A DNA stretch of 32,596 nt from an uncultured archaeon (GCA_964538145.1 CAZIEC010000003.1:21368-53963); one strand, 5' to 3'. Positions 966 through 26,936 are shown, counted from the first letter of the stretch. The notes: generated from the sequence alone by a model not told the origin. Numbers and translations are program-made.

Positions 966-2375
966 TTATCTTAATTGCCTGAATTCAGACGCTATTTTTT
1001 GGAGGCGATCAATCAATTCTTTTGTATTAGTACTTTTTTCAACTACTTGATTAAATTTTTCATCCAAATCATTGATTAATTTTATTAAATTATCTTCTGT
1101 AGAGTTAAAATTTGTTGATAAAGAATCTAAGATAACTTCATGAAATTCTTTAACTTTATTTTCGCAGGCTTTAACTTGTTCTCCATTAGAATTAATCTCT
1201 CCTTCAAGATTTCGAATTTTTTCACTGTTTTGATTGATCTTGGAAGAAATTGCATCTAAAATTCTCTCAAAGGTATTTGAAATTTTATCAAATTGACTGT
1301 TTATATCATCATTAATTTTCAAAAGCAAGGATTCTAATTCTGATTCAATGAACTTCCTATAATTTTCTTGTTCTTTCAGACTATTATCTAAAGATTCTGA
1401 AATGCTAGAAACAAAAACATTTGAAATTTCATTGAATTTTTTTTCAAAATAATTTTGTAATCCCTCTAATCCATTATTTATCGTGGTTTTTAATTGGTTT
1501 ATTGAACTTTTAAGATATCTACTCCCCTTAATACTCCCCTCTTCAACATCTATTAACCATTGTTCTAATTGTTTATTAAATGGTTGAGCAAAAGAATTTA
1601 CAAGAGCCATGGTACCATCTGTTATCCCCTTACTCAAAGATTGAATTTTATTTTCAATTTCTACGATATCTTGTTCAACCATTTCCTTTTTTTGTAAGGG
1701 AATCTCCTGTAAATCACCCTGAGATGGTTTTACATGTTCTCCATATTCATGGATAAGAATTTGATCTTTTCTTTGAATGCTCTCTACTAAATGTTGAACC
1801 CATTTAAAAAATTCTAAAGTTTTAGGAGGTTCTAATTGACAATTAATCTCAATTAATTCATCATGCTTGTTATGATCTTTAAATCGATATGCTTGAAAGG
1901 AAAATATGCTCTTTTTTTCAACTTTAATGGGATCAAAAGTTAAACAAAAAGCATTTGGAAAATTATCATTTTGGAAATATCTATGTATTTGAATATCTGC
2001 TGATGTAAGTTTCAAATCATATTTTGGGTGCGATATATACCAACCAATGATCCGTAATGATTCATTAGAATGTTCCATTTTAATTTTATCTAAAAGAGCT
2101 TCCAATTCTCTTGAAAGACCTAATTCAATATAGTCGCCATGGGTCAATGGAATACATTCTTTCACGATCAATACATTCTTCTCATTATTTTCTTGTTCTC
2201 CTAAACAAACTCCCATTGCTTCTACGGGGGTTTCTAAAAAAGAATTTCCAAATCTTAGAATGTGAAAGATCATTTTCTTAAATGCTTCTGGCTTTATTAT
2301 TATTTTATCCAAACTCTTTGTTGTTAAGCCTTTCTCTTTACTTTCATTAACTTGATCTTCTAAATTATTTTCCAT
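966..2375 (-). CDS. MPN- (degenerate JAMM) domain protein with a ~240-aa C-terminal helical/coiled-coil region
   Basis: The MPN scaffold is kept (E52 in PVEAMGVCLG; IIGWY-ISHP), but the canonical HxHx7Sx2D reads I114-S-H116-x7-T124-x2-D127 (nt 1995-2036). The first zinc-ligand His is therefore Ile and the Ser is Thr. Residues ~230-469 are K/E/N/S-rich and heptad-like. The ATG at 2375 directly abuts the TAA (2376-2378) of the upstream gene, and AGGAGGT lies 8 nt upstream. Confidence 0.85.
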   Translation of the reverse strand: MENNLEDQVNESKEKGLTTKSLDKIIIKPEAFKKMIFHILRFGNSFLETPVEAMGVCLGEQENNEKNVLIVKECIPLTHGDYIELGLSRELEALLDKIKMEHSNESLRIIGWYISHPKYDLKLTSADIQIHRYFQNDNFPNAFCLTFDPIKVEKKSIFSFQAYRFKDHNKHDELIEINCQLEPPKTLEFFKWVQHLVESIQRKDQILIHEYGEHVKPSQGDLQEIPLQKKEMVEQDIVEIENKIQSLSKGITDGTMALVNSFAQPFNKQLEQWLIDVEEGSIKGSRYLKSSINQLKTTINNGLEGLQNYFEKKFNEISNVFVSSISESLDNSLKEQENYRKFIESELESLLLKINDDINSQFDKISNTFERILDAISSKINQNSEKIRNLEGEINSNGEQVKACENKVKEFHEVILDSLSTNFNSTEDNLIKLINDLDEKFNQVVEKSTNTKELIDRLQKIASEFRQLR

Positions 2376-3863: not shown

Positions 3864-4182
3864 AAAAAATTCACTTTTTCTTGTTAATTTTTTACTTTTA
3901 ATTATTAATTCTTTAAATCTTTTAAATCTTTAAATAAAATCTCATTTTCATTATAGATATTAATAGTAGGATTCTTTTTTAAAGCTGTACTTATTAAGGA
4001 TGAAAATTAATCTTAACAGATCTCCAAACTAATCATATCAATATTGCTTTGAATATTTTTTTATTAATTTTTAACCTTAATGAGGAATAAGAACAAAGAA
4101 TTTACTAATTTACATATTAATTTAAAAAATTTCTTAAAAAATGATTAAACTCATTTAAAAATAGAATAAACAAAATAGAAAA

Positions 4183-4848
4183 TTAAAATGGTAGAGGTTT
4201 ACCGCAATATGGGCAGAATTTCCAATTCAAATCTTTTCCACATGAAGGGCAAACTCTTGAATCAGTAGAAGGAGGTTCATATCCAGGTATTGGAGGTAAT
4301 TCTCGAGTAGGTCTTATAATTTTAACAGGTTTAGAAGGATGGGAGTGCGATACTGGAGTTGAGGAAGATGTAGTTCCAACTACTTCTTCTTTTTTTGCCA
4401 TCAATCTTTCTTTAAAGGCTTGACGCAAGTCTTCTTTACTCGTCATTCCTTCCTCTTTAACCCAACCAGAAACTTTTGGACGTTTCAATTCACTTTCAGG
4501 TACTTTTTCCAATACAACTTTTTTAGTTTCTGAGATTGGTGCCATGACCTTCTTTTGTTCCTTATTTTGAATTGCTTGCTTAATTAATGCTTGAGTTGTT
4601 TTCATTACTTGATGTGGATTAATGTTTGGGATTGCAACAGTTCTTAAAACCCATCCAACAATCATATTTTGATTGGGGAATCCAGACGATGTAATATCTT
4701 CATCTTTATACACGTACGAATCGATTACATTATTACCTTTTAATAATCTTGAAGCCCATTTACCATTTATAAGACCTAATTGGAGTCTATATGATGTCCC
4801 AGCAATTCCTAATTGGCTCGAGAGAGGCTCAAATCCTTTTTCTGACAT
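4183..4848 (-). CDS. Hypothetical protein: ~100-aa N-terminal globular domain, Lys/Glu/Pro-rich low-complexity linker, C-terminal CxxC-x8-CxxC zinc ribbon
   Basis: C-terminus is RVCPSCGKDLNWKFCPYCGKPLPF. The linker reads ...SSSTPVSHSHPSKPVKIIRPTRELPPIPGYEPPSTD. The N-terminal family is not recognised. Confidence 0.7.
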   Translation of the reverse strand: MSEKGFEPLSSQLGIAGTSYRLQLGLINGKWASRLLKGNNVIDSYVYKDEDITSSGFPNQNMIVGWVLRTVAIPNINPHQVMKTTQALIKQAIQNKEQKKVMAPISETKKVVLEKVPESELKRPKVSGWVKEEGMTSKEDLRQAFKERLMAKKEEVVGTTSSSTPVSHSHPSKPVKIIRPTRELPPIPGYEPPSTDSRVCPSCGKDLNWKFCPYCGKPLPF

Positions 4849-5005
4849 GATAATCCGTTATTTTTTCAATTAAAATATTTGATTTTATTCTGTATATTAT
4901 ATGTAAAAATTTTAATTTAAATTATGTTATGTTTCTAAAAAAAAATACATAAATAACCTAAGTTTTATGTAATGAATTAAGAAAATTATAATTAAAGTTT
5001 CTTTC

Positions 5006-5956
5006 ATGACAGTCATCATACCAAAAAAAGCATATTTAACTATTGTAGCAGCAAGCGTTAGATTTGCCAATCAGAAAATTCCTAGAGATGATTGGTTGGA
5101 AGTTAGCGGAATATTTATAGGAAAAAACGAGGGAAATGATGTGATAATCTCGAAAGCTTATCCCATCATGCATCAAGAATTAGATAAAGATGCAGTTATC
5201 GATCAATATAAGTGGAGCGATGAAGACATGATAGTTGCATCTGAGATTGAATTAGAAGCTTATGAAAGAAATGAATTCATTGTAGGATGGTGGCATAGTC
5301 ATCCAGGTTTTAAAGTGATGATGAGTCATATAGATATTAAAACAACTCTTTCATATCAACAACACAATCCATTAGCAATTTCTTTAGTATTTAACCCTGA
5401 AAGATTATTACGTCAAATAGAATTACCCAATAAAAAAGGAGATCCTGTAAAGCAGTTAAAGAACGATCCTGGATTTAAAATTTTTAGATTAGATGATGTC
5501 TCCAAAGGAATTCAAGCATCATATCATGAAGTAGATTATAAGATTGAAGGGTATGACAGTTTAGACCAATTAGTAAAACTTACTCAAAAATTTATTATTG
5601 ACATTACGAATTTCTTTCCAAAAGATAATATCTATGAAGTTTATGAGAGCTTTATTGATGAAAGAATCAATAAATTAGAATCCATTCTGTTAGGTACTGA
5701 AGAATATCTAAAAACTTTAGCCCGAACGGGCGAATCACACAGAATTTCTGAAGTATTAGATAATCAAGTAAAAGAAATCAGAAAATATGTTGCTGAAACT
5801 TATATTAAAATCGAAAATATCAGAGAGTTCATGGATTACTTGGAATACAAGGAGAGAGATGCAGTCATTCCTAAGGTAAACGAAATATTGTTGAGATGGG
5901 ACGAAACCATATCAACATTAGATGAAAAAATTGAGAATTTAAAGAAAGTCGTTTAA
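5006..5956 (+). CDS. MPN+ JAMM metalloisopeptidase-like protein (316 aa) with a ~130-aa C-terminal helical region
   Basis: E32 (WLEVSGIFIG) and VGWWHSHPGFKVMMSHID = H97-x-H99-x7-S107-x2-D110 (nt 5294-5335). C-terminal helical segment reads ...LESILLGTEEYLKTLARTGE...STLDEKIENLKKVV. Confidence 0.9.
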   Translation: MTVIIPKKAYLTIVAASVRFANQKIPRDDWLEVSGIFIGKNEGNDVIISKAYPIMHQELDKDAVIDQYKWSDEDMIVASEIELEAYERNEFIVGWWHSHPGFKVMMSHIDIKTTLSYQQHNPLAISLVFNPERLLRQIELPNKKGDPVKQLKNDPGFKIFRLDDVSKGIQASYHEVDYKIEGYDSLDQLVKLTQKFIIDITNFFPKDNIYEVYESFIDERINKLESILLGTEEYLKTLARTGESHRISEVLDNQVKEIRKYVAETYIKIENIREFMDYLEYKERDAVIPKVNEILLRWDETISTLDEKIENLKKVV

Positions 5957-6112
5957 AGTATCGTATTTTATTTTTATCCACTCATTTTTAATTACCTACT
6001 TGTAATCCGTGTAAAAAAAGGAAAATCTTTATTTTACTTGGACATTTTTTTATTTAAACGATTATTTAAGTAAAAGATTATAAAAGAATTATTAAAGAGT
6101 TCGATTTACACG

Positions 6113-8320
6113 ATGAAAAAAATAAATTTTCCTTTTACAGCAATATTAGGTCAAGATAAAATGAAATTGGGGCTCATTCTCAACATCATAGACCCCCAAA
6201 TAGGAGGCATCTTATTAACGGGACAACAAGGAACGGGCAAATCTACTGCGGTTCGTTCTTTGGTCGATGTGATGCCAAAAATTGAAGTTGTTAAAGGATG
6301 CACTTTTTCTTGTGATCCAAAATCAGATTTAGAAGATTTATGTGAAGAATGTAGAGAAAAGAAAAAAAATAATAATTTAGAAATAATAACAAGAAAAATG
6401 CGAATTGTAAACCTTCCTTTAGGAGTTACTGAAGATATGGTCTGTGGTTCATTATCCATAGATAAGGTAATTAGTGAAGGGATCAAGAGCTTGCATCCTG
6501 GACTATTAGCAAAAGCAAATAGGGGAATACTCTATGTGGATGAAATAAATTTATTACAAGATCATATTGTCGATGTTCTTTTAGATGCTGCTGCTTCTGG
6601 GGTAAATATTATAGAAAGAGAGGGGATTTCTGTATCACATCCTTCTCGTTTTGTTTTAGTAGGGAGCATGAATCCAGAGGAAGGTGATCTTAGGCCTCAA
6701 ATAGCTGATCGCCTTGGATTAGAAGTAAAAATCGAAGCTCCTCGTGATCCTAAATTGAGAGCAGAAATTACAAAACGAGTTATTGAATTCAATGATAATC
6801 CAAAAGAATTCATTAAAAGATTTGAAAAGGAGCAAGAAATATTAAGAGATAAAATAGTTCGAGCTAGACAAATTTTAAAACAAGTAGAGATTCCCGCAAC
6901 GGTTTATGAATTTGTATCAATGATTGTAAATGAGTTAGGAATCTTTTCTCAGCGAGCAGATATTACTTTTATTAGATGTGCCCGGGCTCATGCTGCATTT
7001 AATGGGAGAACTCACATAGAGGAAGAAGACTTGAATGTTGCTTTAGATTTAGTTTTTGAACACCGCATCCAATCACTCCATTATGAAATGACTCCAGAAG
7101 AAATTAAAGGAAAGATCACGGAAGTATATGGAAAAATTCAGAAAGCATATGAAGATCCTAAAGCATATCAACCAAATAGGGAAACTGAAGGTCCAATGAA
7201 ATATGATGATACGCCTCAAAAAGAATTTAAAAGGCAATCAATAGATCCCAAGAAAGTATCGATCCCAGAAACTAAAGAACAAAAATTGCCCCCTCCTAAA
7301 TATCCTGATAACAAAAAGAGAACTCCCGAACCAGCTGGAGGATGGAAAGTTAAAGACATCCCTCGTGAGGAAATTGATTTTAATTTCTTTAAAAACAACC
7401 TCAACACGGCGATGCCTTTAATTTACAAGATGGAAAAAAAGATGACTTCAATTTTAGACAATATTAGAAAGGATAGGAAAGTTTCTGATTATGGTGGAAG
7501 GGGAATTGGGAGAAGAATAAAAATCGCTTCAAGCCAAAAAGGAAGATATGTTTCTTATAGAGCGCCATTAAATCGTCCAAAAAGCTTAGCTTTAGATGCA
7601 ACAATAAGAAATTTTTTGAAAAATACAATCTACAATCGAACAGATTTAAAGTTTCCATTAAAATTTGATAAATATGATTTAATGGATAAAATCTATGAAT
7701 ACAGGGCTCCATTAGTTCTATTTTTCGTGTTAGACAGCTCGGCATCAATGTACTATGTCATAAAGCAGATGACGGATGTAATAATGTCTTTACAAAAAGA
7801 AGGTTATAGAAAAAAAGATAAAATCAGCTTGATAATCTTTAGAGGTAAGGAAGCAATAGTTTTGCAGAAGCCTACAGTTAATTTTAAGAGTGCCATAGGA
7901 AAACTTAAGAAAATTGAAGGGAGATCATACACACCAATGGCTGCGGCATTAAAAAAATGCATGAAACTGATTGAAGCTGAAAAACTTAAAAATAGAAATG
8001 TTATTCCAGTTATTTTCATATGTTCTGATTGTGGTGCTAATATTTCTGTAAAATATCCAGATCTAATAGCTCAAGTTCAAAGTGATTATAAATTAATCAT
8101 CAATGAATTAAAAGAGTTGACAAAATCTCTAAATAAAAAGGGAGTTCACATAGTTGTTCTTGAACCAAAGAAAAGCTATGCTACAAGGGCTCTCGGTGTA
8201 AACACATTTGCGGCTGATCAAATTAAAAAGAATTTTAAAACTTATGCTAAAGCTGAAATTTTTCAATTTGATAGATATAACCCTAAAAGTTTAATACTTG
8301 AATTAAAAAAGATCTTATAA
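6113..8320 (+). CDS. Fused ChlI/BchI-type AAA+ ATPase plus Pro-rich linker plus ChlD-type vWA (MIDAS) domain protein
   Basis: The N-terminus FPFTAILGQDKMKLGLILNIIDPQIGGILLTGQQGTGKST is the classic ChlI/BchI opening, with Walker A at nt 6221-6247. Cys-rich insert CTFSCDP...LCEEC; Walker B GILYVDEINLL; linker ...KLPPPKYPDNKKRTPEPAGG. The vWA MIDAS is LFFVLDSSASM (D541-S-S-A-S, nt 7733-7747), plus downstream YTPM and SDCGAN. Confidence 0.9.
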   Translation: MKKINFPFTAILGQDKMKLGLILNIIDPQIGGILLTGQQGTGKSTAVRSLVDVMPKIEVVKGCTFSCDPKSDLEDLCEECREKKKNNNLEIITRKMRIVNLPLGVTEDMVCGSLSIDKVISEGIKSLHPGLLAKANRGILYVDEINLLQDHIVDVLLDAAASGVNIIEREGISVSHPSRFVLVGSMNPEEGDLRPQIADRLGLEVKIEAPRDPKLRAEITKRVIEFNDNPKEFIKRFEKEQEILRDKIVRARQILKQVEIPATVYEFVSMIVNELGIFSQRADITFIRCARAHAAFNGRTHIEEEDLNVALDLVFEHRIQSLHYEMTPEEIKGKITEVYGKIQKAYEDPKAYQPNRETEGPMKYDDTPQKEFKRQSIDPKKVSIPETKEQKLPPPKYPDNKKRTPEPAGGWKVKDIPREEIDFNFFKNNLNTAMPLIYKMEKKMTSILDNIRKDRKVSDYGGRGIGRRIKIASSQKGRYVSYRAPLNRPKSLALDATIRNFLKNTIYNRTDLKFPLKFDKYDLMDKIYEYRAPLVLFFVLDSSASMYYVIKQMTDVIMSLQKEGYRKKDKISLIIFRGKEAIVLQKPTVNFKSAIGKLKKIEGRSYTPMAAALKKCMKLIEAEKLKNRNVIPVIFICSDCGANISVKYPDLIAQVQSDYKLIINELKELTKSLNKKGVHIVVLEPKKSYATRALGVNTFAADQIKKNFKTYAKAEIFQFDRYNPKSLILELKKIL

Positions 8321-8359
8321 AAGATCTATTTACTTTGTTTTTCACGCGATTTTTTAAAA

Positions 8360-9616
8360 ATGAGTGATAAAAAATCAATTTTGGTCTTGGGTTTTAACAC
8401 GCGTCCATTAGCATTTTCATTAAAGCAATCAGGATTTGATGTTTACGTGGTTGATTTTTTTGGAGATATTGACTTATTTCCTTACGTGAAGGATTCAATC
8501 ATCATTACAGAAAGATTAAATTCCAATTATGAAGCTCTTAAAGAGGATTTTGACATTTATCTCATTAACTTCGGTTTAGAAATGCTTAAAAAATACCCTA
8601 ATATAGATTATTTCCTTATTGGGAGTGGATTAGACGATGCAATCAATGAAAGAAGAGTTTTTGAAGAAAAAATTAATGAATTAGGTCTTAAAATAAAAAA
8701 TACAAACAATGATCTAAAAATAATTGAAAAGGCAAGAGACATAAATCTTATCCATAAAATCTTAAAAGAGAATGATTTTCCAGTACCATTAACATGCAAC
8801 TTAGAAAACGTGGATGATTTATCCTTTGATTTTACCTTTCCAATCATTCTAAAAAAGAAACATAGTTCTGGAGGCATTAGTATTAAGAAAATAAAAAATA
8901 GGACCGAATTAAAGGAAGAAAAATGGAAAATGATTAAGAATAAGATAAATTTAAGTGATTGGTTAGTCCAAGAATATATCGAGGGAATTCCTGTTAGTTG
9001 TACTTTCATTTCAAATGGTATCAAATCAGAAATAATTTCGATTAATCAACAATTAATTGGAGAAAAAGTTTCAAACCCTCCTTCTAACTTTTTTTACTGT
9101 GGAAATGTAGTACCTGCAAAAATTTCAAAAAAAGATAAAGATTTAATTACCAAAATATCATTAAGATTAGCTTCTGAATTAGGATTGAAAGGTATAAACG
9201 GGATAGACTATGTTTTAAGAGATCATGATCCTTTTTTTATGGAAATTAATCCTCGAATTCCAGGATCAATAAGAGCATCTGAGTGTAGCTTGAATATAAA
9301 TTTATTAGATCTACACGTAAAAAGTTTTGAAACTTTTAAATGGAAAAACATAGTTAATCATCTAAAATCAATTTCTAAAATTGAATATGCAACTAAATTA
9401 ATCATGTATGCTTCCAAAGACTTAAATGAGCTCCACTTAGAACAAATTAATAATTTAAAAAATGTACACGACAAAACACTTCCGCAAAAAGGAGCTAAAA
9501 AGGGGGATCCTGTTTGTACTATTTTAAACGTGGATGATGATCATGATAGTTCATATAAGGGAGCTTTAAAAATAGCAAATAAAATCAATTTGATAATGAA
9601 TGAGTCCTCATACTAA
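8360..9616 (+). CDS. ATP-grasp superfamily ligase (predicted carboligase/peptide ligase, COG2232-like)
   Basis: Rossmann-like pre-ATP-grasp N-terminus (ILVLGFNTRPLAFSLKQSGFDVYVVDFFGD). ATP-binding Lys plus Gly loop (PIILKKKHSSGGISI). WLVQEYIEG, and the catalytic FFMEINPRIPGS motif. Confidence 0.8.
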   Translation: MSDKKSILVLGFNTRPLAFSLKQSGFDVYVVDFFGDIDLFPYVKDSIIITERLNSNYEALKEDFDIYLINFGLEMLKKYPNIDYFLIGSGLDDAINERRVFEEKINELGLKIKNTNNDLKIIEKARDINLIHKILKENDFPVPLTCNLENVDDLSFDFTFPIILKKKHSSGGISIKKIKNRTELKEEKWKMIKNKINLSDWLVQEYIEGIPVSCTFISNGIKSEIISINQQLIGEKVSNPPSNFFYCGNVVPAKISKKDKDLITKISLRLASELGLKGINGIDYVLRDHDPFFMEINPRIPGSIRASECSLNINLLDLHVKSFETFKWKNIVNHLKSISKIEYATKLIMYASKDLNELHLEQINNLKNVHDKTLPQKGAKKGDPVCTILNVDDDHDSSYKGALKIANKINLIMNESSY

Positions 9617-10342
9617 AATTGATTTTATTTTCGCTACATAACTACCTAATTTTCTCTCATCTGCCTCTGGAACTGCTATTGCCAAAATTCTGTTATTATC
9701 TAGTTTATGTATTATAATTGAACCGTTTTCCCCTCCAATAATTGAATATTCAAGTTCTTCATCTAGTAAAACGGCAGCTAAGTTGTAGATAGCAGATATC
9801 ATTGCCGACAATATTGGTTCTGGCATGGTTGCTTGTACTTTAATAGGCAAACCTTCTTTAGTGATAATGGCTATTACTAAAGCGTTTGGAATTGCCCTTT
9901 TTAATGCAACAAAAATCTCTTCCTTAATTAAATCAGAGGTTTCTACGATTGCTGATAATTGAATAGCTAGATTTTTTAATGAATTGATGTAAGAATCTAA
10001 ACCTTCAAGTTCCGCAAGTTCTCTATTAAGATAAGCGATTAAAGTTATATTTTCTGTAAGAATGGAAAGAATTAGGTTGTTCTTACCAGTTACTAAATTA
10101 TAAGAAATTTGTTGATTTAATGAATCTAAGAGAATTTTAGAAGATAAAAATATTAAGCTGCTACTGGCTGCTGATATTTCAGTTTTTGTTAATTTAATAT
10201 TTCCTTTAAAAATACTTGCTAAATGGGTGCCTCCATGTGTCGATACAGTAATCCCTAAAATTCCTGAATTGGTCTCTAACTTTTTAGATATAAGATTCTT
10301 GAGATCATCTTCTAATCGAGTAATATTCTTTTCTGGCACCAT
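9608..10342 (-). CDS. Tandem Roadblock/LC7 (MglB-like) domain protein
   Basis: 244 aa forming two ~115-aa halves. Each has the Roadblock-like pattern helix, then GILGITVSTHGGTHLAS / ALVIAIITKEGLPIKVQ strands, helix, three strands and helix. Assignment is by pattern only. The 3' end overlaps the ATP-grasp gene convergently by 9 nt. Confidence 0.65.
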   Translation of the reverse strand: MVPEKNITRLEDDLKNLISKKLETNSGILGITVSTHGGTHLASIFKGNIKLTKTEISAASSSLIFLSSKILLDSLNQQISYNLVTGKNNLILSILTENITLIAYLNRELAELEGLDSYINSLKNLAIQLSAIVETSDLIKEEIFVALKRAIPNALVIAIITKEGLPIKVQATMPEPILSAMISAIYNLAAVLLDEELEYSIIGGENGSIIIHKLDNNRILAIAVPEADERKLGSYVAKIKSILV

Positions 10343-11718: not shown

Positions 11719-12567
11719 TTATATTTGAATAAAGCTCATTTTCCTTTTTTCAAGATTGGCAAGTTTATTAAAGCCTAATTCTTTTAAAATCAATACCATT
11801 TCTTTAAATTTATAGCCAATTTCTCTTGGATTATGGGCATCTGACCCTAATAATGTCGGAATTTCCTTACTTTTCATTATTTTAAGAATTTCCGTGCTGG
11901 GATATTGTTCTTTTACTGGTTTTCTTAATCCACTAGAATTTAATTCAATTATAATCTGTTTTTCTTTAACAATTTCTAAAATTTCATCAATTAATTTTGA
12001 AATTTTTCTCCTATTAATGGGTTTCTTATTAAATTTTTTAGGTAAATCAAAATGGCCTATGATATCAAATTTAAACATTTTAGATTCAACCATGCTTTTA
12101 AGAGTTTCATAATATAGCTCAAAAATCTCATCAATTTTATCAAATCTCGAATATAGGAAGAGAAAATTCTCATCATCAAAGGGAAACAATCCAAATTCCG
12201 TTTCCAAGTTATGAATTGAACCAATAATATAATCTAATTTTTTAACATGGTCTTTTATGTATTTTTTGTAAGAATTTTCTTGACTTTTGATATAATCAAT
12301 TTCAAAACCTATTCTTATGGCAATTTGATTCTCATATTTTTTCTTTAATCTTTCAGCTTCTCTAATATAACCATATAAATCTTCCAATTTCATGGCATAA
12401 GCTTCATATGGAATATTTTCAATACCTTTCAAGAATTCATAGGGAAAATGAGCACTAAATCCGATTAAATTCAAATTTTTATTAATTGCAGATTTTACAT
12501 AATCTTCAAGATTGCCTATTGCGTGCCTGCATAGTGAGCTATGAGTATGCCAGTCTTGAAAAATCAT
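11719..12567 (-). CDS. PHP-domain phosphoesterase, histidinol-phosphatase (HisJ/HisK) family-like
   Basis: N-terminal DWHTHSSLCRHA (the PHP HxH motif). Further metal-ligand-like sites: FSAHFPY, IGSIHNL, IIGHFDL, LGSDAHNP. Confidence 0.8.
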   Translation of the reverse strand: MIFQDWHTHSSLCRHAIGNLEDYVKSAINKNLNLIGFSAHFPYEFLKGIENIPYEAYAMKLEDLYGYIREAERLKKKYENQIAIRIGFEIDYIKSQENSYKKYIKDHVKKLDYIIGSIHNLETEFGLFPFDDENFLFLYSRFDKIDEIFELYYETLKSMVESKMFKFDIIGHFDLPKKFNKKPINRRKISKLIDEILEIVKEKQIIIELNSSGLRKPVKEQYPSTEILKIMKSKEIPTLLGSDAHNPREIGYKFKEMVLILKELGFNKLANLEKRKMSFIQI

Positions 12568-12654
12568 CGTTTAGATTTTTAAATCAAATCATTTTTCTTT
12601 TGTTTTAGATTATTAAATATTAGAAAAATAGGTAATTCTTATACATTATTAAAG

Positions 12655-13479
12655 GTGAAAACGATAGAGTTTCAAGAAAAACAATTTGATGGTCCCTATG
12701 AAGTATCAGAAGTACAAATAAAAATAGATGATCAAATATTGCGTGGTATTTTATATTTTCCTCCTGAAAGGTTCGCTAGACCTTATCCATTGATAATTTA
12801 CTTTCATGGATTTCCTCAATTATTCACTTTAGAAGAGCTAATAAAGAATCATGATTACTTATTAAATGAGGGTTATTCTCTTTTAGTTTTTAATTTTAGG
12901 GGATATCGAATAAGTGAAGGAAAAGTTTCTATAGAATCGCAAGTAAAAGATGCAACTCAGGTATTAAAATTTGTTAAGTTAATGGCAAAAAAGAAAATTT
13001 TTGAAATTGAAAACATAAATATTCTTGCCCATGATTTTGGAGCATTTATTGCATTAATAGCCTGTTCTAAAGAGTCTTTTATAAGTAAATTATTGTTATT
13101 GAGTCCCATAATTGATGTATCTAAACGTGTAAATGATCCAAGATTAGTTGAAACTCTACAATATATCAATAAATTTCTCCCTGGAAATGTAAGTGGAATC
13201 GAAAATGTGGAAGAATTCATAAAAAAAACTAAAGAAGAATTAAAAAAAGATGATTTTAACTTAAATGATATCTTAGGGAAGGTTAAATGTAATCACGTGA
13301 AAATTATATGGGGAGAAAAAGATAAATTAACGAGCTTTGAAGAAATCGAATTTGTTTTAAAAAATATTAATGCAAACAAAAGCTTAACTAAAATTAAATC
13401 AATGGACCATTATTTAATTGATGATGCTGAAATTAATGAGGTAAAAGTGGAAATTATAAAGTTTTTCAAGTTATCCTAA
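12655..13479 (+). CDS. Alpha/beta-fold hydrolase with an apparent Asp nucleophile
   Basis: GTG start. Oxyanion-region YFHGFP. The nucleophile elbow reads ILAHDFGAF (sm-x-D-x-G instead of GxSxG). Later WGEKDKLT (acid) and SMDHYLID (His) occur in canonical order. Confidence 0.7.
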   Translation: MKTIEFQEKQFDGPYEVSEVQIKIDDQILRGILYFPPERFARPYPLIIYFHGFPQLFTLEELIKNHDYLLNEGYSLLVFNFRGYRISEGKVSIESQVKDATQVLKFVKLMAKKKIFEIENINILAHDFGAFIALIACSKESFISKLLLLSPIIDVSKRVNDPRLVETLQYINKFLPGNVSGIENVEEFIKKTKEELKKDDFNLNDILGKVKCNHVKIIWGEKDKLTSFEEIEFVLKNINANKSLTKIKSMDHYLIDDAEINEVKVEIIKFFKLS

Positions 13480-13654
13480 AGAAAATGATTTCCATATTGA
13501 TATCTCTAAATTTTATTTTAAAATTGATCATATAAATTTGCAAATTTTATTATTAAGTAGAACACGGATCAATTGAATTATAACCAAAAATTATTTAAGA
13601 ACGAAAATAAATCATCTTCTTACTACAAACTAAAAACATTTAAGTGCGAAACTA

Positions 13655-16600
13655 ATGCAGAATTTGGAAACTAAATCTATAAATAACCATTTAAATTTCT
13701 TAGAAACTCCAGAAAGCCTTGTATTCTTGATTGGTGCGGGATGTTCTTCAATTGAACCATCTAATGCACCAATTGGGAGAAAAATAATAGAAACGCTTAT
13801 AAAGTTCTTTTTAAATAAATCTGAAGTAAAAAAAATATTATCAATTGAGAATATTAAATTAGAAAAAACTTTAAGTGTTCTACAAGAAGTATTTGATGAG
13901 AATTTGAAAATAATTGAATACTTTAATGAGTTTACTAACCCTAATTTAGTGCATTTTTTCATTGCAAGAATGTTAAAAGAAGGAAGCTTGGTAATGACAA
14001 CTAATTTTGATCCTCTAATAGAACTTGCTTTATTAAGAGATGGAGTACCAAAAAAGAAAATCATTCCACTAATAACTAAAAGAGATTTTGATAAAGTAAA
14101 AAATGTAGAAAATTATATTAAAACCAAGCGTTATCTAATTGGAAAGATTCACGGTTCGCCTAAAAATTTCATAACAGGAGCCAATACTAAGAAAGAATTA
14201 GTTAAAACCATAAAGGTTTTGGGAAATGCTGAAAAAAATAAGGGTCTTTTTCAATTAGAACCATTTAAAGCCCGATTTTTAGATTCAGCCACAAAAGAAC
14301 GCTCCCTTATTGTAATGGGTTATTCTGGACGAAATGATGATGATATTATTCCTACAATAAAAGCTCTCTCAGGATTAAAAGAAATTTTTTGGATCAATCA
14401 TGTCGAAGAAAAAAAGGAAATAGAAGAAGTTATAGAGATACGTAAAAAGAATTTATCTCAAGCTAATAAACTGGATGATATAGACAATATTTTATTAGAA
14501 ATAAAAGAATTTAATGAAAAATTAAAGATTTTCAGAGTAAATATCAATATTTTAGAATTGATAAAGAAACATGTAGATAAAGAAATTGAAATCAAACCTG
14601 ATGAAAATTTTATTGACTATGAAACATGGTTAACAGAAAATTTTAATGATAAAATTGATGAAAAAGAGCAATTACAAGCCGCAGGAATGATTTACTCTAA
14701 ATTTGGACAACATTATGACGCGATCAGGTGTTTTGATGAATTATTTAATGTGGCATCTGAGGAAAAAGATTCAAAATGGCAAGTCATAGCAGCATTAAAT
14801 AAAGGTTTAATATACGCAAAAGCATCTGATTTTGATAATACGAGAGAATGGTTAAGAAGATCTCTTGAGTTGCAATTTAAGTCTAAGCTTTTAAGCGAGA
14901 GAGCAGTTATATTTAAAGAATTAGGGTTATTATATGAGAATAAAGGAGATTTAGACAAGGCTCTTTTATATTTAAGGGAAGCTACTAAAATAGCCGAAAA
15001 ATTAAATGATCCATCAATAAAGGCTGAGATGTTAAATCAATTAGGATTAATCTATTTAAAAAAGAATGAATACCAGAGAGCCTTGAATATTTTCAACCTT
15101 TCCTTTAAAATTAATGATAAACTTAAGAACTTACAAGAAAAAGCAAATAATTTGGCTAATATGGGAAAGGTTTTTAGTGAAAAGGGCAATTTTCAAAAAG
15201 CTTTAGAATTTTTTAAAGAAGCATTAGCAATTAATGAGAAAATTAAAAATAAACAAGAAGTAGCTCGACTGAAAAATGAAATTGGATTTGTAGAACATCT
15301 TTTAGGTAATTCATTAACAGCATTAGAAGAATGTAAAAGCTCTTTATCAATATGTGAAAGTATTAATGATACAATGGGAAAAATGAAAGCATTGTATAAT
15401 ATTGGAAGAATTTACATGGATCAATGGAATTATTTAAGAGCTCATGAATTTTTTGAAGAAGCTTTTCAATTAGCTGAAGAAAGTGAAGATAAAAAGATGC
15501 AAGCCGTATTAACAACTCAAATTGGATTAATTTATAAATTACAAGATAAATATTTGGATGCTCTTGAGTGGCTTACTAGAGCTAATAATTTTTATAAAGA
15601 ATTAGGGGATTTAGATAGCAGGATTGAGGTATTGAAGAACACTTGCTTAATTTATAAGCAGCAAAAGGATTATGATAAAGCATTAAATTGTTTTCAAAAA
15701 ATCTTATCACTTTTAGAGGAGTCTAAAAATAAAAATGCAATCATTCAGTATTTAAACATCATTGGTCAAATTTATTTAGAACAGAGAATGTTCAATAAAT
15801 CTCTTGAATATTTTCAAAAAGCTCTTGAAATTTCAGATGATATTGCTGATTTAAAGGGTATGCTTGAATCAATAATAAATATTGGTCTATATTATCAAGA
15901 GCAAGTAAATTATTCTGAAGCTCTAAATCGATATAAAGATGCCTTGGAAATAGCAAATAGATTAAAGTTAAATAATAAAAAAGCAAAAGTATTGAATAAA
16001 ATGGGTTCAATATTTCAAGATCAAGGAGAATATAACAAGGCACTCAAAAATTTCGAAGAAGCTCTCTCATTATTTACTCAAGAAAATGACTTTAAAGGGA
16101 GAATCGAAAGTCTTTATCTTATAGGGTTGAATTATTATTATGAAAGTAAATATGACTCTGCAATTAAAAATCTACAAACAGCGATTCAAATTGCCGATCA
16201 AATTGGAGATTTGCGCGAAAAAGCAACTTGTTTAAATATTCTTGGAGAAATATTTAAAAATCAATGGAACTTTCTTGAATCCCTAAAATATTACGAAGAA
16301 AGCTTATTAATTGCTGAAGAGTTAAATGATCCTCAAAAACAATTGAGCATTTTAAAAGTAATTGGAGAAATTTACAAATTGCAGAAACATTATCCAGAAG
16401 CTTTAAGAAATTTTGGTAAAGCTTTAGAAATTGCAGAAAGAGAAGGCGATTTAATGAAAAAGTCAGATATTCTGAATTCAATTGGGCTCATATATTTTGA
16501 CGAAGAAGATTTGGCAAAAGCACTTTCTTTATTTCAAGAAGCTCTTGAGATTGATGAAAAACTTGGGGATTTAAAAGGAAAAGCCGAAAGGCTCATCAAT

Positions 16601-17713
16601 AAAGGAAATGTTTATTTTAATTGGAGGCAATATGAAAAAGCAATTGAATATTTTCATCAAGCAAGGAAAATTCAAGACCAATTGGATAATCCAAGTGGAT
16701 TGGCAAACATTCTCGAGAAGATTGGGCTATTATATTTTGAAAAACACGAATATGATGACGCAATTAATTATCTTAAGCAAGCATTAGAATTATTCGAAAT
16801 GATCGATAATGTAGAAAGTGTTATTGATTGTAAAATAATTCTTGGTAAAATTCATCAGGAACAATTCCAATATTCTGTTGCTACAAAATACTTTCAAGAG
16901 GCTCTGAAATTAGCTTCAAGTATTAATGATCAAAACCGTAAAGGAACTTCATTATTCAAGATTGCTTCAATATTGCAAGAACAAGGAATATACAAGGATG
17001 CATTGATTCATTATAACAATGCTTATGAAATCTTTGATTCATTAGGGGATATTACGAATAAAACAAATTGTTTAAGTAGAGTAGGATTAATATTTCAAGA
17101 TCAAGGAAAATATACTGAAGCTTTAAGATGGTACGAACGTTCGATGAAATTCTATCAATTTCTTGGAGAATCAAGAGAGATGGAAGAAACTTACTTTAAT
17201 ATGGCAATGATTTATAGAGATCAAGAAAAATATTTCGACTCTTTAAAATTATTTGATAGAGCTCTAAAAATTTCTGAAAAAATTGGCGATTCTAAATTAA
17301 AAGCTGAAATATTGAACATGATTGGATTGATCTATATAAATATAGGAGATTATGAGATAGCAAGAGAAAGATTGGAAAATGCTTTAAAAATTGCTGAAGA
17401 ATTAAATGACCAGGTGAAGATCGCTCAATACAACAGTAATTTGGGGCTAATAGATTTAAATAATGGAGATTATGCTGAAGCTTGGATAAAATTCGAATTG
17501 GCCTTAACTATATATAAAAACCTTAATAATATTGAAGGAATGGCAGATTCGCTTTACAAGCAAGGATTAACTTATTATGAACAAAAGAGTTATATCGAGG
17601 CACTAAATAAACACAAAGAAGCCCTACAAATCTTGGTTAAGAATAAATTTCAAAAACATCCATTAGTGAAAGTACTTAAAAATAATATAAAATTGATTAA
17701 AAGCCGGATATGA
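13655..17713 (+). CDS. SIR2_2-type (sirtuin-like, predicted NAD+-consuming) N-terminal domain fused to a ~1000-aa TPR-like solenoid
   Basis: SIR2_2 landmarks: LVFLIGAGCS (Rossmann GAG, res 27-29), MTTNFDPLIE (N117, nt 14003-14005), GKIHGS (H166, nt 14150-14152), VMGYSGRNDDDI. No P-loop lies between this domain and the repeats. Residues ~336-1335 are 25 consecutive 40-residue TPR-like units. Confidence 0.9.
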   Translation: MQNLETKSINNHLNFLETPESLVFLIGAGCSSIEPSNAPIGRKIIETLIKFFLNKSEVKKILSIENIKLEKTLSVLQEVFDENLKIIEYFNEFTNPNLVHFFIARMLKEGSLVMTTNFDPLIELALLRDGVPKKKIIPLITKRDFDKVKNVENYIKTKRYLIGKIHGSPKNFITGANTKKELVKTIKVLGNAEKNKGLFQLEPFKARFLDSATKERSLIVMGYSGRNDDDIIPTIKALSGLKEIFWINHVEEKKEIEEVIEIRKKNLSQANKLDDIDNILLEIKEFNEKLKIFRVNINILELIKKHVDKEIEIKPDENFIDYETWLTENFNDKIDEKEQLQAAGMIYSKFGQHYDAIRCFDELFNVASEEKDSKWQVIAALNKGLIYAKASDFDNTREWLRRSLELQFKSKLLSERAVIFKELGLLYENKGDLDKALLYLREATKIAEKLNDPSIKAEMLNQLGLIYLKKNEYQRALNIFNLSFKINDKLKNLQEKANNLANMGKVFSEKGNFQKALEFFKEALAINEKIKNKQEVARLKNEIGFVEHLLGNSLTALEECKSSLSICESINDTMGKMKALYNIGRIYMDQWNYLRAHEFFEEAFQLAEESEDKKMQAVLTTQIGLIYKLQDKYLDALEWLTRANNFYKELGDLDSRIEVLKNTCLIYKQQKDYDKALNCFQKILSLLEESKNKNAIIQYLNIIGQIYLEQRMFNKSLEYFQKALEISDDIADLKGMLESIINIGLYYQEQVNYSEALNRYKDALEIANRLKLNNKKAKVLNKMGSIFQDQGEYNKALKNFEEALSLFTQENDFKGRIESLYLIGLNYYYESKYDSAIKNLQTAIQIADQIGDLREKATCLNILGEIFKNQWNFLESLKYYEESLLIAEELNDPQKQLSILKVIGEIYKLQKHYPEALRNFGKALEIAEREGDLMKKSDILNSIGLIYFDEEDLAKALSLFQEALEIDEKLGDLKGKAERLINKGNVYFNWRQYEKAIEYFHQARKIQDQLDNPSGLANILEKIGLLYFEKHEYDDAINYLKQALELFEMIDNVESVIDCKIILGKIHQEQFQYSVATKYFQEALKLASSINDQNRKGTSLFKIASILQEQGIYKDALIHYNNAYEIFDSLGDITNKTNCLSRVGLIFQDQGKYTEALRWYERSMKFYQFLGESREMEETYFNMAMIYRDQEKYFDSLKLFDRALKISEKIGDSKLKAEILNMIGLIYINIGDYEIARERLENALKIAEELNDQVKIAQYNSNLGLIDLNNGDYAEAWIKFELALTIYKNLNNIEGMADSLYKQGLTYYEQKSYIEALNKHKEALQILVKNKFQKHPLVKVLKNNIKLIKSRI
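14660..17659 (+). repeat. 25 x 120-nt (40-aa) in-frame TPR-like repeat array, with no indels between units
   Basis: Consensus by eye is K...LN.IGLIY..QG.Y..AL..F..AL.I.E.LGD... Example units: KAEMLNQLGLIYLKKNEYQRALNIFNLSFKINDKLKNLQE, KANNLANMGKVFSEKGNFQKALEFFKEALAINEKIKNKQE ... MADSLYKQGLTYYEQKSYIEALNKHKEALQILVKNKFQKH. The units are diverged at the DNA level. Confidence 0.85.
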
Positions 17714-17722
17714 TTTTCTTTT

Positions 17723-18556
17723 TTAAGCTGGAATGAGAATTTCTTCAACAATTTTCTTTTTACTCGATATTTTTTTGCTGATGAGTGGAAGTACTTTATC
17801 GTATAAGATGTATAAGTATGGAGCTCCCTGATTAAACAAGAAAAAGACCTCAAATATTAGGAAAAGAAATCCCAATGACCGAATTCCAGCTATGAGGAGG
17901 GGAAATTCCATGAAAAACGACTCTAAGCAGCCAACAAGGAAGACATAAAATAATACTCTAATGTTTTTACTCTTAAACAGGTTTGTTCCATAAATTAAGA
18001 TTAGAATTGAATAACCTATGATAACATTTATCACCCAGACAGTCATCTGAGTTTCCATGTGTCGAACCGTGTAGACAATTGTATCATTTAATGGAATTAG
18101 AAGTGATAAAAATGGAATTAAAAGCCATGAACCAAAAAAGATCAATGTATATTTAATTGTCTCCTTAATTTTTTTACTTTCAAAGTTTTCAAACATTATC
18201 CATAACCAACAAAAAGCAAACATCGAATAGGAGAAACACATCATGAAATCCGCACCAAATTTAATCCAGAAATAATCTCCAAGTGGGTGGGGCATCTTCA
18301 CACCACCAATCCAGTATTCTCTTATTGTTGTGCCAGTAGGATAATTTTTTCCCGCAGGTAAGTTCCACCAAAAAACGGCATCAATAAGATACACGATAAT
18401 TCCTGTAAAAATTCCAAATAAAATTGCATGCCATTTTTTATTTTTAATGAGCATCCCTATCCATATTGTTAGAAAAAAAGCATCAATGTAAATGTAATCA
18501 TATTGAAATCTCCTAGAGACTTCCTTAAATGATTCAAAAAAAGTATCAAATCTCAT
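17723..18556 (-). CDS. Multi-pass membrane protein, unknown family (Trp/Phe-rich, ~7 hydrophobic segments)
   Basis: 277-aa ORF with repeated hydrophobic helices (FFLTIWIGMLI, AILFGIFTGIIVYLIDAVFWW, FMMCFSYSMFAFCWLWIMF, LIFFGSWLLIPFLSLLIPL ...). Its 3' end lies 9 nt from the SIR2-TPR stop (convergent). Confidence 0.7.
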   Translation of the reverse strand: MRFDTFFESFKEVSRRFQYDYIYIDAFFLTIWIGMLIKNKKWHAILFGIFTGIIVYLIDAVFWWNLPAGKNYPTGTTIREYWIGGVKMPHPLGDYFWIKFGADFMMCFSYSMFAFCWLWIMFENFESKKIKETIKYTLIFFGSWLLIPFLSLLIPLNDTIVYTVRHMETQMTVWVINVIIGYSILILIYGTNLFKSKNIRVLFYVFLVGCLESFFMEFPLLIAGIRSLGFLFLIFEVFFLFNQGAPYLYILYDKVLPLISKKISSKKKIVEEILIPA

Positions 18557-18669
18557 GATAATTTCAATATTTAATGTTTATGATCAAATTACTCCTTATA
18601 AATTTAAAAATTTTAAAAAAAAAAATGCAATTCTTAATATTTTTAAAGTTAGCATTAAATCACTTGAAA

Positions 18670-19332
18670 TCATTTCTTCTCATTAATATATTGTAATATA
18701 TAATTTTTTACGCGCTCTTTTGGCTGATATATCCCAAAATGCCCTTCACAGAGAATATCTGCCTCTAGTTCAAGTAATTTTTTTAGAGAATTTTGATAAT
18801 CCTCAAAATTAGACACACCAGGAATTATTGGGCCATGCAAATCCTGACCAAATAATATCTTAATGTTTGGATTGGTCAATTCAAGTAAAATTGCAATTGA
18901 ACCTGGAGTATGACCAGGTATGTGAATGCATTGAAAATCAAGATCTCCAAACCTTAATACTTCGATATCTCCTGTTAAATATTTGTCTAATTTTATTGGT
19001 TTATAAGTCACGCCATACCATCCTGCTGCAGTTTTATCATCGTGTCCTTCTTCTTCAATCGCTTCAGCATCTAATTCATGAGCATAAAACTTAACTTTTT
19101 TATTGAATTTCTTCAGTTTGGCACATGCAGCAATGTGATCTATGTGAAAATGAGTCAAAATGCAATGTTTTATGTCTAATGGATCTAAGCCTATTTCATT
19201 AATATCCTTGATCAAACTTAAAGACATTCCACAATCAATAAGAACCAAGCCATCTTCGCTTCTGGTGTCAACCAAATAAACAGAACATCCAGAATCACCT
19301 AAATGAAAGATATTTTTAACTATTTCTCTCAT
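18670..19332 (-). CDS. Metallo-beta-lactamase-fold hydrolase
   Basis: HxHxDH motif (THFHIDHIA), HIPGHTPGS, GQDLHGP, CEGHFG. Confidence 0.9.
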   Translation of the reverse strand: MREIVKNIFHLGDSGCSVYLVDTRSEDGLVLIDCGMSLSLIKDINEIGLDPLDIKHCILTHFHIDHIAACAKLKKFNKKVKFYAHELDAEAIEEEGHDDKTAAGWYGVTYKPIKLDKYLTGDIEVLRFGDLDFQCIHIPGHTPGSIAILLELTNPNIKILFGQDLHGPIIPGVSNFEDYQNSLKKLLELEADILCEGHFGIYQPKERVKNYILQYINEKK

Positions 19333-26225: not shown

Positions 26226-26936
26226 TTATTCATTTATAAATTTCTCATTATTAATCTTCTTATCCAGGATGGTAAGATCTTCTTCTATTTTTTCTGTTGG
26301 AGCGGTACCGTTACCATATATCTGGTATAAAACAGTTCGCCTAGCACATTCATAGAAACTGCGATAAATATTTTTATTTTTTCCATAAATTGCACATGTT
26401 TTATAAATAATGGGATTCCATAAATGCAAATTATTATTAGAATCGAACCATAATTTTTCTTTTTTTAAAATTTGAATGAAATCCTCTTCATCAATGACAT
26501 CATCCAAATCTTGCTTATTAAGCATTACTACAAATGGAAGCTTAACTATCAAGGAGTCTTTAGCAACTTTTTTCAATTCTAATAAAGATTCGATATTATC
26601 TTCTAAATATTTAGTTTGAGAATCCACTACAAAAATAACTGAATCTGCACCCTCAAATATACGTGCTCTTAAGGGAGAGAAACTTGATTGCCCTGCAACA
26701 GTAAATACACGATAATATACTTTTTTTTGTTCCTTAGATTGAAAGATCCCTCTATCAAAATATAGTGTTGCTCCACTTGTCTTGGAGATTTTTTGAAGTT
26801 CTCCTATAGGAACGATTTCTTTCTTGTTTTCTTTAGTGATCTTGTATAACGTGTCTAAAATTGTGGTTTTCCCGGAACCTCCCATTCCCCAATAAACTAT
26901 CTTTAGATAAACATTTCCATTCTTGTAAAGTACCAT
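26226..26936 (-). CDS. MglA-like small Ras-superfamily GTPase
   Basis: G1 GMGGSGKTT (nt 26865-26888). G3 reads T79-V-A-G-Q83 (nt 26688-26702), the TxxGQ variant typical of the MglA family instead of DxxGQ. G4 is NKQD (res 140-143); G5-like is KTCAI. ~50-aa C-terminal extension. Confidence 0.85.
   Translation of the reverse strand: MVLYKNGNVYLKIVYWGMGGSGKTTILDTLYKITKENKKEIVPIGELQKISKTSGATLYFDRGIFQSKEQKKVYYRVFTVAGQSSFSPLRARIFEGADSVIFVVDSQTKYLEDNIESLLELKKVAKDSLIVKLPFVVMLNKQDLDDVIDEEDFIQILKKEKLWFDSNNNLHLWNPIIYKTCAIYGKNKNIYRSFYECARRTVLYQIYGNGTAPTEKIEEDLTILDKKINNEKFINE

Follow-up and report, generated by a model that had tools for sequence, protein, structure and literature searches.

Among the effectors of prokaryotic immunity, SIR2_2 NADases form a central class, with FAM118A and FAM118B as human relatives. 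The described system closest in working logic to the one reported here is DSR2 of Bacillus subtilis, a bacterial antiphage tetramer that a phage's tail-tube protein opens and activates and whose catalytic set is S51/N133/D135/H171 (PMC11850899). Other solved relatives also form oligomers, with filaments in ThsA, FAM118B, KomC and Avs5 and a dodecamer in SIR2-HerA; the PDB entries of ThsA, KomC and Avs5 are helical assemblies. FAM118B requires N163 and H206 for activity and filament contacts for NAD processing (PMC12700824). Here we analyze a gene, SIR2-TPR, in a 32,596-nucleotide stretch of DNA from an uncultured archaeon (GCA_964538145.1, CAZIEC010000003.1:21368-53963; hereafter the window). 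It encodes a SIR2_2 head followed by a long solenoid of tetratricopeptide repeats (TPRs). An immune-type head is combined with a DSR2-like layout, yet in its host group, the archaea nearest to eukaryotes, the family behaves as ordinary paralogues do that are inherited vertically and kept by purifying selection.

An initial annotation of the window had described the open reading frame (ORF) as a SIR2_2 head joined to an array of about 25 TPRs. This was borne out by Pfam, by a 40-residue repeat period and by AlphaFold2 (Table 1). Eleven orthologues of 1337–1356 amino acids (aa) could be aligned with gaps in just 23 of 1358 alignment columns, and no tandem repeat was detectable at the DNA level. 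Because the orthologues align collinearly, the gene is not an assembly artefact; a recent repeat expansion was ruled out on the same grounds. Its composition is unremarkable in a window of about 25–33% G+C. Archaeal origin was confirmed by a near-identical contig from a metagenome-assembled genome (MAG; GCA_054386255.1), whose upstream gene order is the same as in the window, and by the fact that all named relatives are Asgard archaea. The copy on that contig (L002; JBQSHL010000100.1, 10001-11215) is identical over the first 405 aa, and the contig ends inside the TPR array.

Over residues 112–236 of the head the Pfam SIR2_2 model (PF13289) scored 34.6 bits, where the gathering cutoff is 24.5, and the other families named for the scan, TPR_12 and TPR_10, matched as well. 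All of the SIR2_2 landmarks that had been read by eye (GAG, TTNFD, KIHGS and GYSGxxD) were found exactly at the positions claimed for them. A single-sequence comparison of the head with the PDB was marginal (FAM118B at TTNFD, E 0.05), whereas a profile built from the family matched the SIR2 of SPARSA (GsSir2, 8jkz/8in8), FAM118B, Sir2Tm and the SIR2-like protein 8w9l, with the GAG loop, TTNFD and GYSG in register. In 8w9l the counterparts of TTNFD and KIHGS are TTNYD and KLHGS, TTNFD aligns to the same motif in GsSir2 and FAM118B, and GYSG aligns to GYSGRDEN of GsSir2. The initial annotation had staked its assignment on N117 and H166 lining up with the catalytic Asn and His of known enzymes, and they do so, both of them in 8w9l and N117 in GsSir2 and FAM118B as well. 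S31, N117, D119 and H166 reproduce the S/N/D/H pattern of DSR2.

These residues are retained across the family. Residues 24–32 of the head read FLIGAGCSS, and across 42 family members G27, A28, G29 and S31 do not vary. All 85 members recovered from loci have N117, D119, G222, Y223 and S224, and each of H166, G225 and D230 is kept in 84 of the 85.

The predicted fold of the head agrees with its motifs. With an AlphaFold2 model of residues 1–330 (predicted local distance difference test score, pLDDT, 81.5; predicted template modelling score, pTM, 0.84), all 39 Foldseek matches in the PDB at E <=1e-3 were SIR2_2 NADases, spanning FAM118B, SPARSA Sir2, DSR2, EcThsA, BcThsA, KomC, Avs5 and SIR2-HerA. 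Classical sirtuins (SIRT2, SIRT3, Hst2, Sir2Tm) ranked below these NADases, at E >2e-3. Since residues 1–330 contain a single Cys (C30), the zinc/acyl-lysine module is absent. Lack of the Zn-binding Cys4 module is the trait that defines the immune-type clade relative to the classical deacylases (10.1101/2024.09.18.613514). By motif and predicted fold, the head is an immune-type SIR2_2 domain whose catalytic residues are intact.

Most other TPR models in Pfam also matched the rest of the protein, beside TPR_12 (E 6e-131, in 15 stretches) and TPR_10 (E 8e-60). The repeat region has a period of 40 residues, with a self-identity of 0.27 at lags of 40, 80 and 120. In an AlphaFold2 model of residues 1–1200 (pLDDT 87.5 overall and about 90 in the solenoid), 44 regular helices of about 17 residues lie between positions 336 and 1199 and make up 22 repeats, from which about 25 repeats can be extrapolated over the full length. 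The structure prediction that had been suggested as a check on the solenoid returned a regular TPR superhelix, with no inserted globular domain in residues 1–1200.

Orthologous repeats are 42.5% identical, compared with 25.9% between different repeats of one protein. Non-consensus repeat positions are still conserved among orthologues, and the best-conserved part of the whole protein is the C-terminal half of the solenoid. An array that is old, individualised and under purifying selection points to a specific, conserved binding partner; the repeat-specific conservation and the most-conserved C-terminal half likewise suggest that a ligand would be specific and conserved.

The nearest solved solenoids are TPRs with a protein-scaffolding role, those of LGN/Pins (TMt up to 0.88), CTR9, Ski3, the IFT-A TPR subunits and OGT. 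LGN repeats likewise span about 40 residues, with extended peptides bound in their inner groove, and the LGN TPR structures were solved with partner proteins bound. LGN/Pins, CTR9 and Ski3 have a repeat geometry like that of the solenoid here, but they are eukaryotic scaffolds without an enzymatic head, and the likeness (about 20% identity) is generic to TPR folds. TPR_12 arrays elsewhere are fused to CHAT, TIR, NACHT/NB-ARC, histidine kinases, cyclases, PP2C and protein kinases. Because they serve such varied outputs, the repeat type alone does not separate immunity from signalling.

The absence of a nucleoside triphosphatase (NTPase) between effector and repeats, already remarked on in the initial annotation, held up. 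A motif search found no Walker A motif in the protein, no P-loop family of Pfam matched it, and the model is continuous from SIR2 through the linker to the TPRs. Avs5/SIR2-STAND, eukaryotic SIRim-NACHT-TPR and SAMD9/9L resemble SIR2-TPR in joining a SIR2_2 effector to C-terminal repeat sensors (TPR or ankyrin), but they carry a STAND, NACHT or P-loop NTPase between the two (in SAMD9, between the SIR2 effector and the repeats), where SIR2-TPR has only a linker of about 30 residues.

DSR2 had been likened to this gene as a SIR2 domain with a long helical sensor, and the layout is indeed the same: a SIR2_2 NADase head with the S/N/D/H pattern, then a long alpha-solenoid, in a single gene with no NTPase. 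However, the DSR2 sensor consists of a MID domain and HEAT-like repeats rather than TPR_12, the two heads are about 13–17% identical, and the structural match is limited to the SIR2 head. None of the DSR models in PADLOC matched at E up to 0.1. SIR2-TPR is also Asgard-specific, syntenic and under purifying selection, unlike the bacterial antiphage DSR2.

SPARSA SIR2-APAZ and ThsA gave the best PDB profile matches (GsSir2) and top structural matches, with their motifs in register. SPARSA, however, has an APAZ region and an adjacent short prokaryotic Argonaute (pAgo), whereas here APAZ is lacking, the Aga_SIR2 models match residues 95–310 only and the scanned neighbours include no pAgo or PIWI gene. 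ThsA of Thoeris has a SLOG or Macro sensor and an adjacent TIR-domain ThsB, both lacking from SIR2-TPR; there were no SLOG, Macro or TIR matches in the protein or its neighbours. SIR2-HerA is accompanied by an adjacent HerA-type ATPase, and no HerA or FtsK-like gene is present among the neighbours. In the effector-TPR-GreA/B-C-PIN system (Kaur et al., eLife 2021), an effector (SIR2 among 13) is likewise fused directly to TPRs with no NTPase, but a constant GreA/B-C and PIN follow the TPRs and the effectors are swapped. Here the TPR array runs to the C-terminus, and the SIR2 head was never swapped in the 97 matches of the profile search described below.

FAM118B was the best single Foldseek match, and TTNFD aligns with its catalytic N163. 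The FAM118A/B proteins (vertebrate 'SIRanc') are chromosomally resident, vertically inherited SIR2_2 NAD-processing proteins, a residency that SIR2-TPR shares. They differ in being stand-alone SIR2 proteins of about 350 aa, without a TPR solenoid. A special relationship with FAM118 is not supported, because its Foldseek score (E 3.5e-7) is indistinguishable from those of bacterial ThsA, DSR2 and SPARSA (4.2e-7 to 6.3e-7).

Table 1. Coordinates of SIR2-TPR, its parts and its neighbourhood, counted from the first nucleotide of the window.
Feature	Position	Strand	Basis or remark
SIR2-TPR gene, complete	13655..17713	+	ATG start; 1352 aa plus stop; ORF list, translation, collinear orthologues
N-terminal SIR2_2 domain (immune-type sirtuin, NADase-like)	13655..14572	+	Residues ~1-306; Pfam, AlphaFold2 model, Foldseek
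GAGCS, putative NAD-binding loop (G27-S31)	13733..13747	+	S31 corresponds to DSR2 S51 in the pattern
TTNFD motif with predicted catalytic N117 and D119 (VMTTNFDPL)	13997..14011	+	Alignment to known NADases
KIHGS motif with predicted catalytic H166 (GKIHGSP)	14144..14158	+	Alignment to KLHGS of 8w9l
GYSGxxDxD motif (G222-D230; GYSGRNDDD)	14318..14344	+	SIR2_2 hallmark
Linker, short, one predicted helix	14573..14659	+	Residues ~307-335; AlphaFold2 secondary structure
TPR_12-type solenoid, predicted ~25 repeats x 40 residues, uninterrupted	14660..17668	+	Residues ~336-1338; period, Pfam, AlphaFold2
Intergenic region upstream of SIR2-TPR, AT-rich, 175 nt	13480..13654	+	Presumed own promoter; gene spacing
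PHP-domain gene, left slot boundary	11719..12567	-	Pfam PHP; context, not functional partner
Metallo-beta-lactamase-fold (MBL) gene, right slot boundary	18670..19332	-	Pfam Lactamase_B; context
Variable slot between PHP and MBL	12568-18669		Inside a conserved gene frame
277-aa protein gene	17723-18556	-	Convergent on the SIR2-TPR stop codon, 9-nt gap
Conserved JAB/Mg-chelatase/ATP-grasp block	966-9616
Roadblock/LC7-domain gene	9608-10342	-	Adjoins the coiled-coil gene
Coiled-coil gene, 325 aa	10619-11596	+
Arf/Roc-like small GTPase gene	26226-26936	-

SIR2-TPR is one member of a large, multi-paralogue Asgard family, a point absent from the initial annotation. When the head was searched exhaustively against 1.84 billion cluster representatives, 290 of them matched at E <1e-30 and 1330 matched at E <1e-3. 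When we scanned one genome per prokaryotic species, we obtained 172 relatives. The best 80 of these, at 36–44% identity, were all from Asgard MAGs (labelled Promethearchaeota/Lokiarchaeia, Hod-, Hermod-, Thor- and Heimdallarchaeota) or from MAGs labelled just 'uncultured archaeon'. A SIR2-profile search, which scored word-sharing candidates only, returned 97 proteins, and all of the named ones were from Asgard archaea or marine-sediment metagenomes. Towards the last of these matches the scores fell off sharply (1e-39 to 6e-12). The architectures recorded among the 97 were SIR2_2 alone (mostly truncated proteins) or SIR2_2 with TPR, and none had an alternative sensor on the SIR2 head. Swapping of effector and sensor was considered and dropped: a search with the TPRs alone was non-discriminating, returning generic TPR_12 proteins with many outputs, and the SIR2 profile gave no other sensor. 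Judged by these searches, the family is discrete and of fixed architecture, and it is seen only in Asgard MAGs and sediment metagenomes.

Family members range from about 410 to 1480 aa and carry only the database names 'tetratricopeptide repeat protein' or 'SIR2 family protein'. Many are marked 'partial', with assemblies breaking in the TPR array, and both family size and protein lengths are therefore underestimated in public annotations. SIR2_2-TPR combinations appear as labels in published sirtuin trees, and the SIRanc study took in 496 Asgard genomes. Neither that study nor three further Asgard papers (the defence survey, the structural-modelling paper and the comparative-genomics preprint) yielded a description of the family, and we found no discussion of an Asgard SIR2-TPR family in the literature searched. 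The published defence survey does not mention SIR2.

At least two copies were found in 17 of 62 assemblies, and five copies in two of them; these counts come from the best 80 loci and should be read as minima, although a split gene accounts for one of the doubles. Paralogues differ in repeat number, and each paralogue lineage has its own fixed length and its own recurrent neighbours. One group consists of 723-aa proteins (L066, L071, L072, L075, L082), followed by a 115-aa ORF in four of five loci and with a GH57-like gene downstream in all five. Another has proteins of about 789 aa (L033, L035, L047, L056, L064) with ferredoxin-like and GAPDH-like genes nearby, immediately flanking in three of the five loci. 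The same MAGs hold one member of each group. An AroD-like gene is also among the paralogue-lineage neighbours; the identities of the GAPDH-, ferredoxin-, GH57- and AroD-like genes rest on sequence inspection only.

Some MAGs contain tandem pairs of SIR2-TPR paralogues (L062, 9965-14476; L065, 1436-5946; and L055). In the L055 pair, a 526-aa ORF lies directly upstream of a 712-aa copy at 1673-3811. The 791-aa copy in L065 has Tyr in place of the catalytic H166 and is the sole member of the 85 without this His. It may be a catalytically dead regulatory partner.

The genomic position of SIR2-TPR is stable. About 20 species genomes have a long copy (1125–1356 aa) in exactly the slot that it occupies in the window, and a positional orthologue was found in another 27 metagenome loci. 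The gene order is JAB, Mg-chelatase (MgCh)/VWA, ATP-grasp, Roadblock, coiled-coil, PHP, (alpha/beta-hydrolase), SIR2-TPR, and to the right of it (277-aa membrane protein), MBL, PAP2, (GDPD), VTT. We anchored a presence/absence test on the PHP gene, which adjoins the slot with or without SIR2-TPR, and took 80 metagenome loci regardless of SIR2 content. Over both locus sets, 43 loci have the gene, 15 lack it with both flanks visible, and 37 were too short to judge.

In a neighbour-joining tree of PHP, the gene was carried by all 37 judged loci in the window's clade. A nearby contig (L126) has a beta-propeller-like gene instead of SIR2-TPR, with the MBL flank outside view. SIR2-TPR is absent from a neighbouring clade that has the same gene frame, and presence and absence are interleaved in a more distant part of the tree, which represents a single gene, carries no support values and leaves the number of gains and losses uncertain. 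Strict synteny together with universal conservation, typical of a core gene, had been proposed as a finding that would tell against the initial reading. The first part stands, since the gene is strictly syntenic and present in 37 of 38 assessable loci of its own clade; the second does not, and SIR2-TPR is not a universal core gene.

Variants of the slot were seen in loci L092, L100, L113, L119, L123, L126, L128, L132, L137, L142, L145, L152 and L154. Where SIR2-TPR is missing, PHP and MBL may be direct neighbours or have a PNPOx-like gene of about 160 aa between them. Other fillings are an S-adenosylmethionine (SAM) methyltransferase with a leucine-rich repeat (LRR)+TPR protein (453–581 aa), a Ser/Thr kinase-TPR fusion (L152) and a hexapeptide transferase. 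In L145 an LRR protein lies to the left of PHP, and the MBL flank is outside view. Repeat-rich, sensor-like proteins turn over recurrently at this one chromosomal site.

The sequence of the gene is constrained to a similar degree as its surroundings. Syntenic orthologues have a median identity of 42% to the window's protein, against 44–81% for the neighbours. We calculated omega (dN/dS, the ratio of nonsynonymous to synonymous substitution rates) by the Nei-Gojobori method for 16 closer genome pairs with dS of about 0.1–0.8. It was 0.14 for the whole gene (range 0.08–0.27), 0.13 for the TPR part and 0.16 for the SIR2 part; values for the neighbours ran from 0.05 (MgCh/VWA) to 0.21. SIR2-TPR is under ordinary purifying selection, like its neighbours. 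Pairwise omega could miss a few positively selected surface sites.

The flanking genes, called ordinary metabolic and membrane genes in the initial annotation, look like housekeeping genes in Pfam, and no defence or mobile-element signature was seen. There is no tRNA, integrase or transposase in the window, and no family members were found on IMG/VR viral contigs; we rejected viral or mobile carriage on these results. Running PADLOC did not yield a known defence system. The head had weak matches to pAgo-associated SIR2 (Aga_SIR2, the best) and to the candidate systems PDC-S65 and PDC-S39, the neighbours had generic weak matches only, and no system model covered the whole SIR2-TPR protein. A defence island would be expected to show patchiness among close relatives, mobile neighbours and a fast sensor; here presence and absence vary only between deeper clades, and neither of the other two features was seen. 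This behaviour is unlike that of a mobile, fast-evolving defence-island gene.

Enzymology and family precedents favour a death or dormancy switch, and genomic behaviour favours a resident gene answering a conserved cue. Our preferred reading, to which we would give an even chance of being right, is that SIR2-TPR is a ligand-gated NADase and serves the cell as a resident switch for surveillance or stress. At rest its SIR2 head would be inactive. A specific protein or peptide ligand would bind the solenoid and, by analogy with solved SIR2_2 relatives, alter the oligomeric state or conformation of the protein. The changed state would turn on NAD+ hydrolysis, and the loss of NAD+ would lead to growth arrest or cell death. 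Such a gene would be resident and vertically inherited, alongside other stable paralogues in Asgard (mainly Loki-type) archaea. Each of them would be tuned to its own conserved ligand, which might come from the cell, as a sign of stress or damage, or be a viral protein of high conservation.

Several points weigh against a ligand-gated NADase switch. We infer the NADase activity, the ligand and the oligomeric state by analogy, and the head is 12–18% identical to solved NADases, with a TM score of about 0.5 in Foldseek. The pTM of the 1200-residue model is 0.49, a value at which the docking of SIR2 on the solenoid and any autoinhibition are not readable. Because the outputs of TPR_12 arrays include pure signalling, a death switch does not follow from the solenoid alone. 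As a stable gene, a lethal NADase that is always present would be unusual in prokaryotes. Finally, since the slot is empty or differently filled in the neighbouring clade, the gene is dispensable for some relatives.

The initial annotation had thought a single-gene abortive-infection or stress switch plausible; an accessory abortive-infection gene we consider unlikely on the present evidence. In the classical form of that explanation, the TPR solenoid would bind a virion or other viral protein, the NADase would be released, and the infected cell would die before virus release. Precedent is on its side, because every characterised protein with this SIR2_2 fold acts in immunity and the alpha-solenoid of DSR2 captures a phage protein by the same logic. 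The expansion of the family (to five or more paralogues in a MAG, with repeat numbers that vary between paralogues), the polymorphism of the slot at a deeper phylogenetic scale, with LRR/TPR sensor-like proteins as alternative occupants, and the weak PADLOC matches of the head to pAgo-associated SIR2, PDC-S65 and PDC-S39 are also consistent with it.

An abortive-infection gene fits poorly with the rest of the genomic record, however. A defence-island, mobile-element or viral context is absent, synteny is strict, and the gene is in 37 of 38 assessable loci of the clade. Omega is 0.14, as in the neighbours, and the sensor is no faster than the enzyme part. The repeats are collinear and individually conserved. 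Other paralogue lineages also lie beside housekeeping-looking genes (GAPDH-like, AroD-like), PADLOC has no model for the whole protein, and the published Asgard defence survey is silent on SIR2.

Those same features (vertical inheritance, a fixed position, a neighbour-like omega and conserved repeat-specific residues) would suit a housekeeping or regulatory enzyme, which we regard as no more likely. Here the TPRs would recruit a conserved cellular client, and the SIR2 domain would ADP-ribosylate that client or sense NAD+/NADH. The protein would then link some process of the cell to NAD+ status, for which the allosteric repeat domain of SARM1 and sirtuin-type ADP-ribosyltransferases offer comparisons; some sirtuin subfamilies (SirTM) do ADP-ribosylate proteins (PMC12700824). 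Each paralogue lineage keeps its length and context, signalling proteins often carry TPR_12 arrays, and the closest solenoid analogues are the eukaryotic scaffolds CTR9, Ski3 and LGN. Against this, there is no precedent, since the characterised prokaryotic SIR2_2 proteins are all NADases in immunity, and there is no macro-domain or ADP-ribose-processing gene nearby. The neighbouring clade keeps the neighbours but not the gene, and hence SIR2-TPR is not essential.

A catalytically silent scaffold, with the SIR2 fold kept just as a nucleotide-binding or oligomerisation module, is very improbable: three quarters of the protein is solenoid, with a likeness to scaffold TPRs, but S31, N117, D119, H166 and GYSG are near-perfectly conserved over 85 diverged paralogues and the SIR2 omega is 0.16, which argues for retained chemistry.

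The initial annotation had reported no partner gene, and we found none either. All-against-all clustering of 849 neighbour ORFs gave no neighbour shared across paralogue lineages. The upstream alpha/beta-hydrolase was rejected as a partner: it is present in loci without SIR2-TPR (L123, L128, L152) and missing from many with SIR2-TPR. Where orthologous loci lack this hydrolase gene, SIR2-TPR is divergent from PHP, and it is therefore probably transcribed on its own.

The 277-aa protein encoded beside SIR2-TPR (Table 1) has about 6–7 hydrophobic segments and no Pfam or PADLOC matches. Among the loci examined its gene occurs only together with SIR2-TPR, though not in all loci that have SIR2-TPR. 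It too was rejected, as an improbable partner. A same-strand GDPD-PAP2-MBL run, with gaps of 41–113 nt, has it as its last gene, and because it ends this run it is better explained as a member of a membrane/lipid cluster.

Farther to the left, the conserved block comprises three JAB/MPN-domain genes, a Zn-ribbon protein, a Mg-chelatase-type AAA+/VWA protein and an ATP-grasp enzyme. The AAA+/VWA protein (735 aa) is 81% identical across relatives, with an omega of 0.05. The block is present with or without SIR2-TPR and might be a ubiquitin-like or MoxR-VWA-type system. The coiled-coil gene had spurious weak PADLOC matches to JetC and LmuB. The Roadblock/LC7 and Arf/Roc-like genes of the window are typical Asgard 'eukaryotic signature'-type genes.

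The architecture of SIR2-TPR is in itself unsurprising. What is unexpected for this effector class is an Asgard-only, multi-paralogue family with vertical inheritance, which touches the question of how effectors of this kind, mobile defence genes in bacteria, became stable, chromosomally resident genes in eukaryotes. Should its members prove not to be NADases, no earlier prokaryotic SIR2_2 protein would have had a housekeeping role. If they are active NADases, they would provide a minimal, NTPase-free model of a TPR solenoid gating an NAD+-depleting enzyme, and a testable example, from Asgard archaea, of a switch for cell death or stress that is resident or 'domesticated'. A broader picture, which we think quite improbable, is that Asgard archaea hold a germline-style repertoire of NTPase-less SIR2-TPR receptors, similar to nucleotide-binding leucine-rich repeat receptors (NLR-like), inherited vertically, conserved one by one and matched to a single conserved ligand apiece, and use regulated NAD+ depletion leading to dormancy or death as cell-autonomous surveillance. 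If true, such a repertoire would be nearer to eukaryotic innate immunity and cell death (SARM1, FAM118, SIRim-NACHT-TPR) than to bacterial defence islands, and it might reflect the ancestral state behind these eukaryotic systems.

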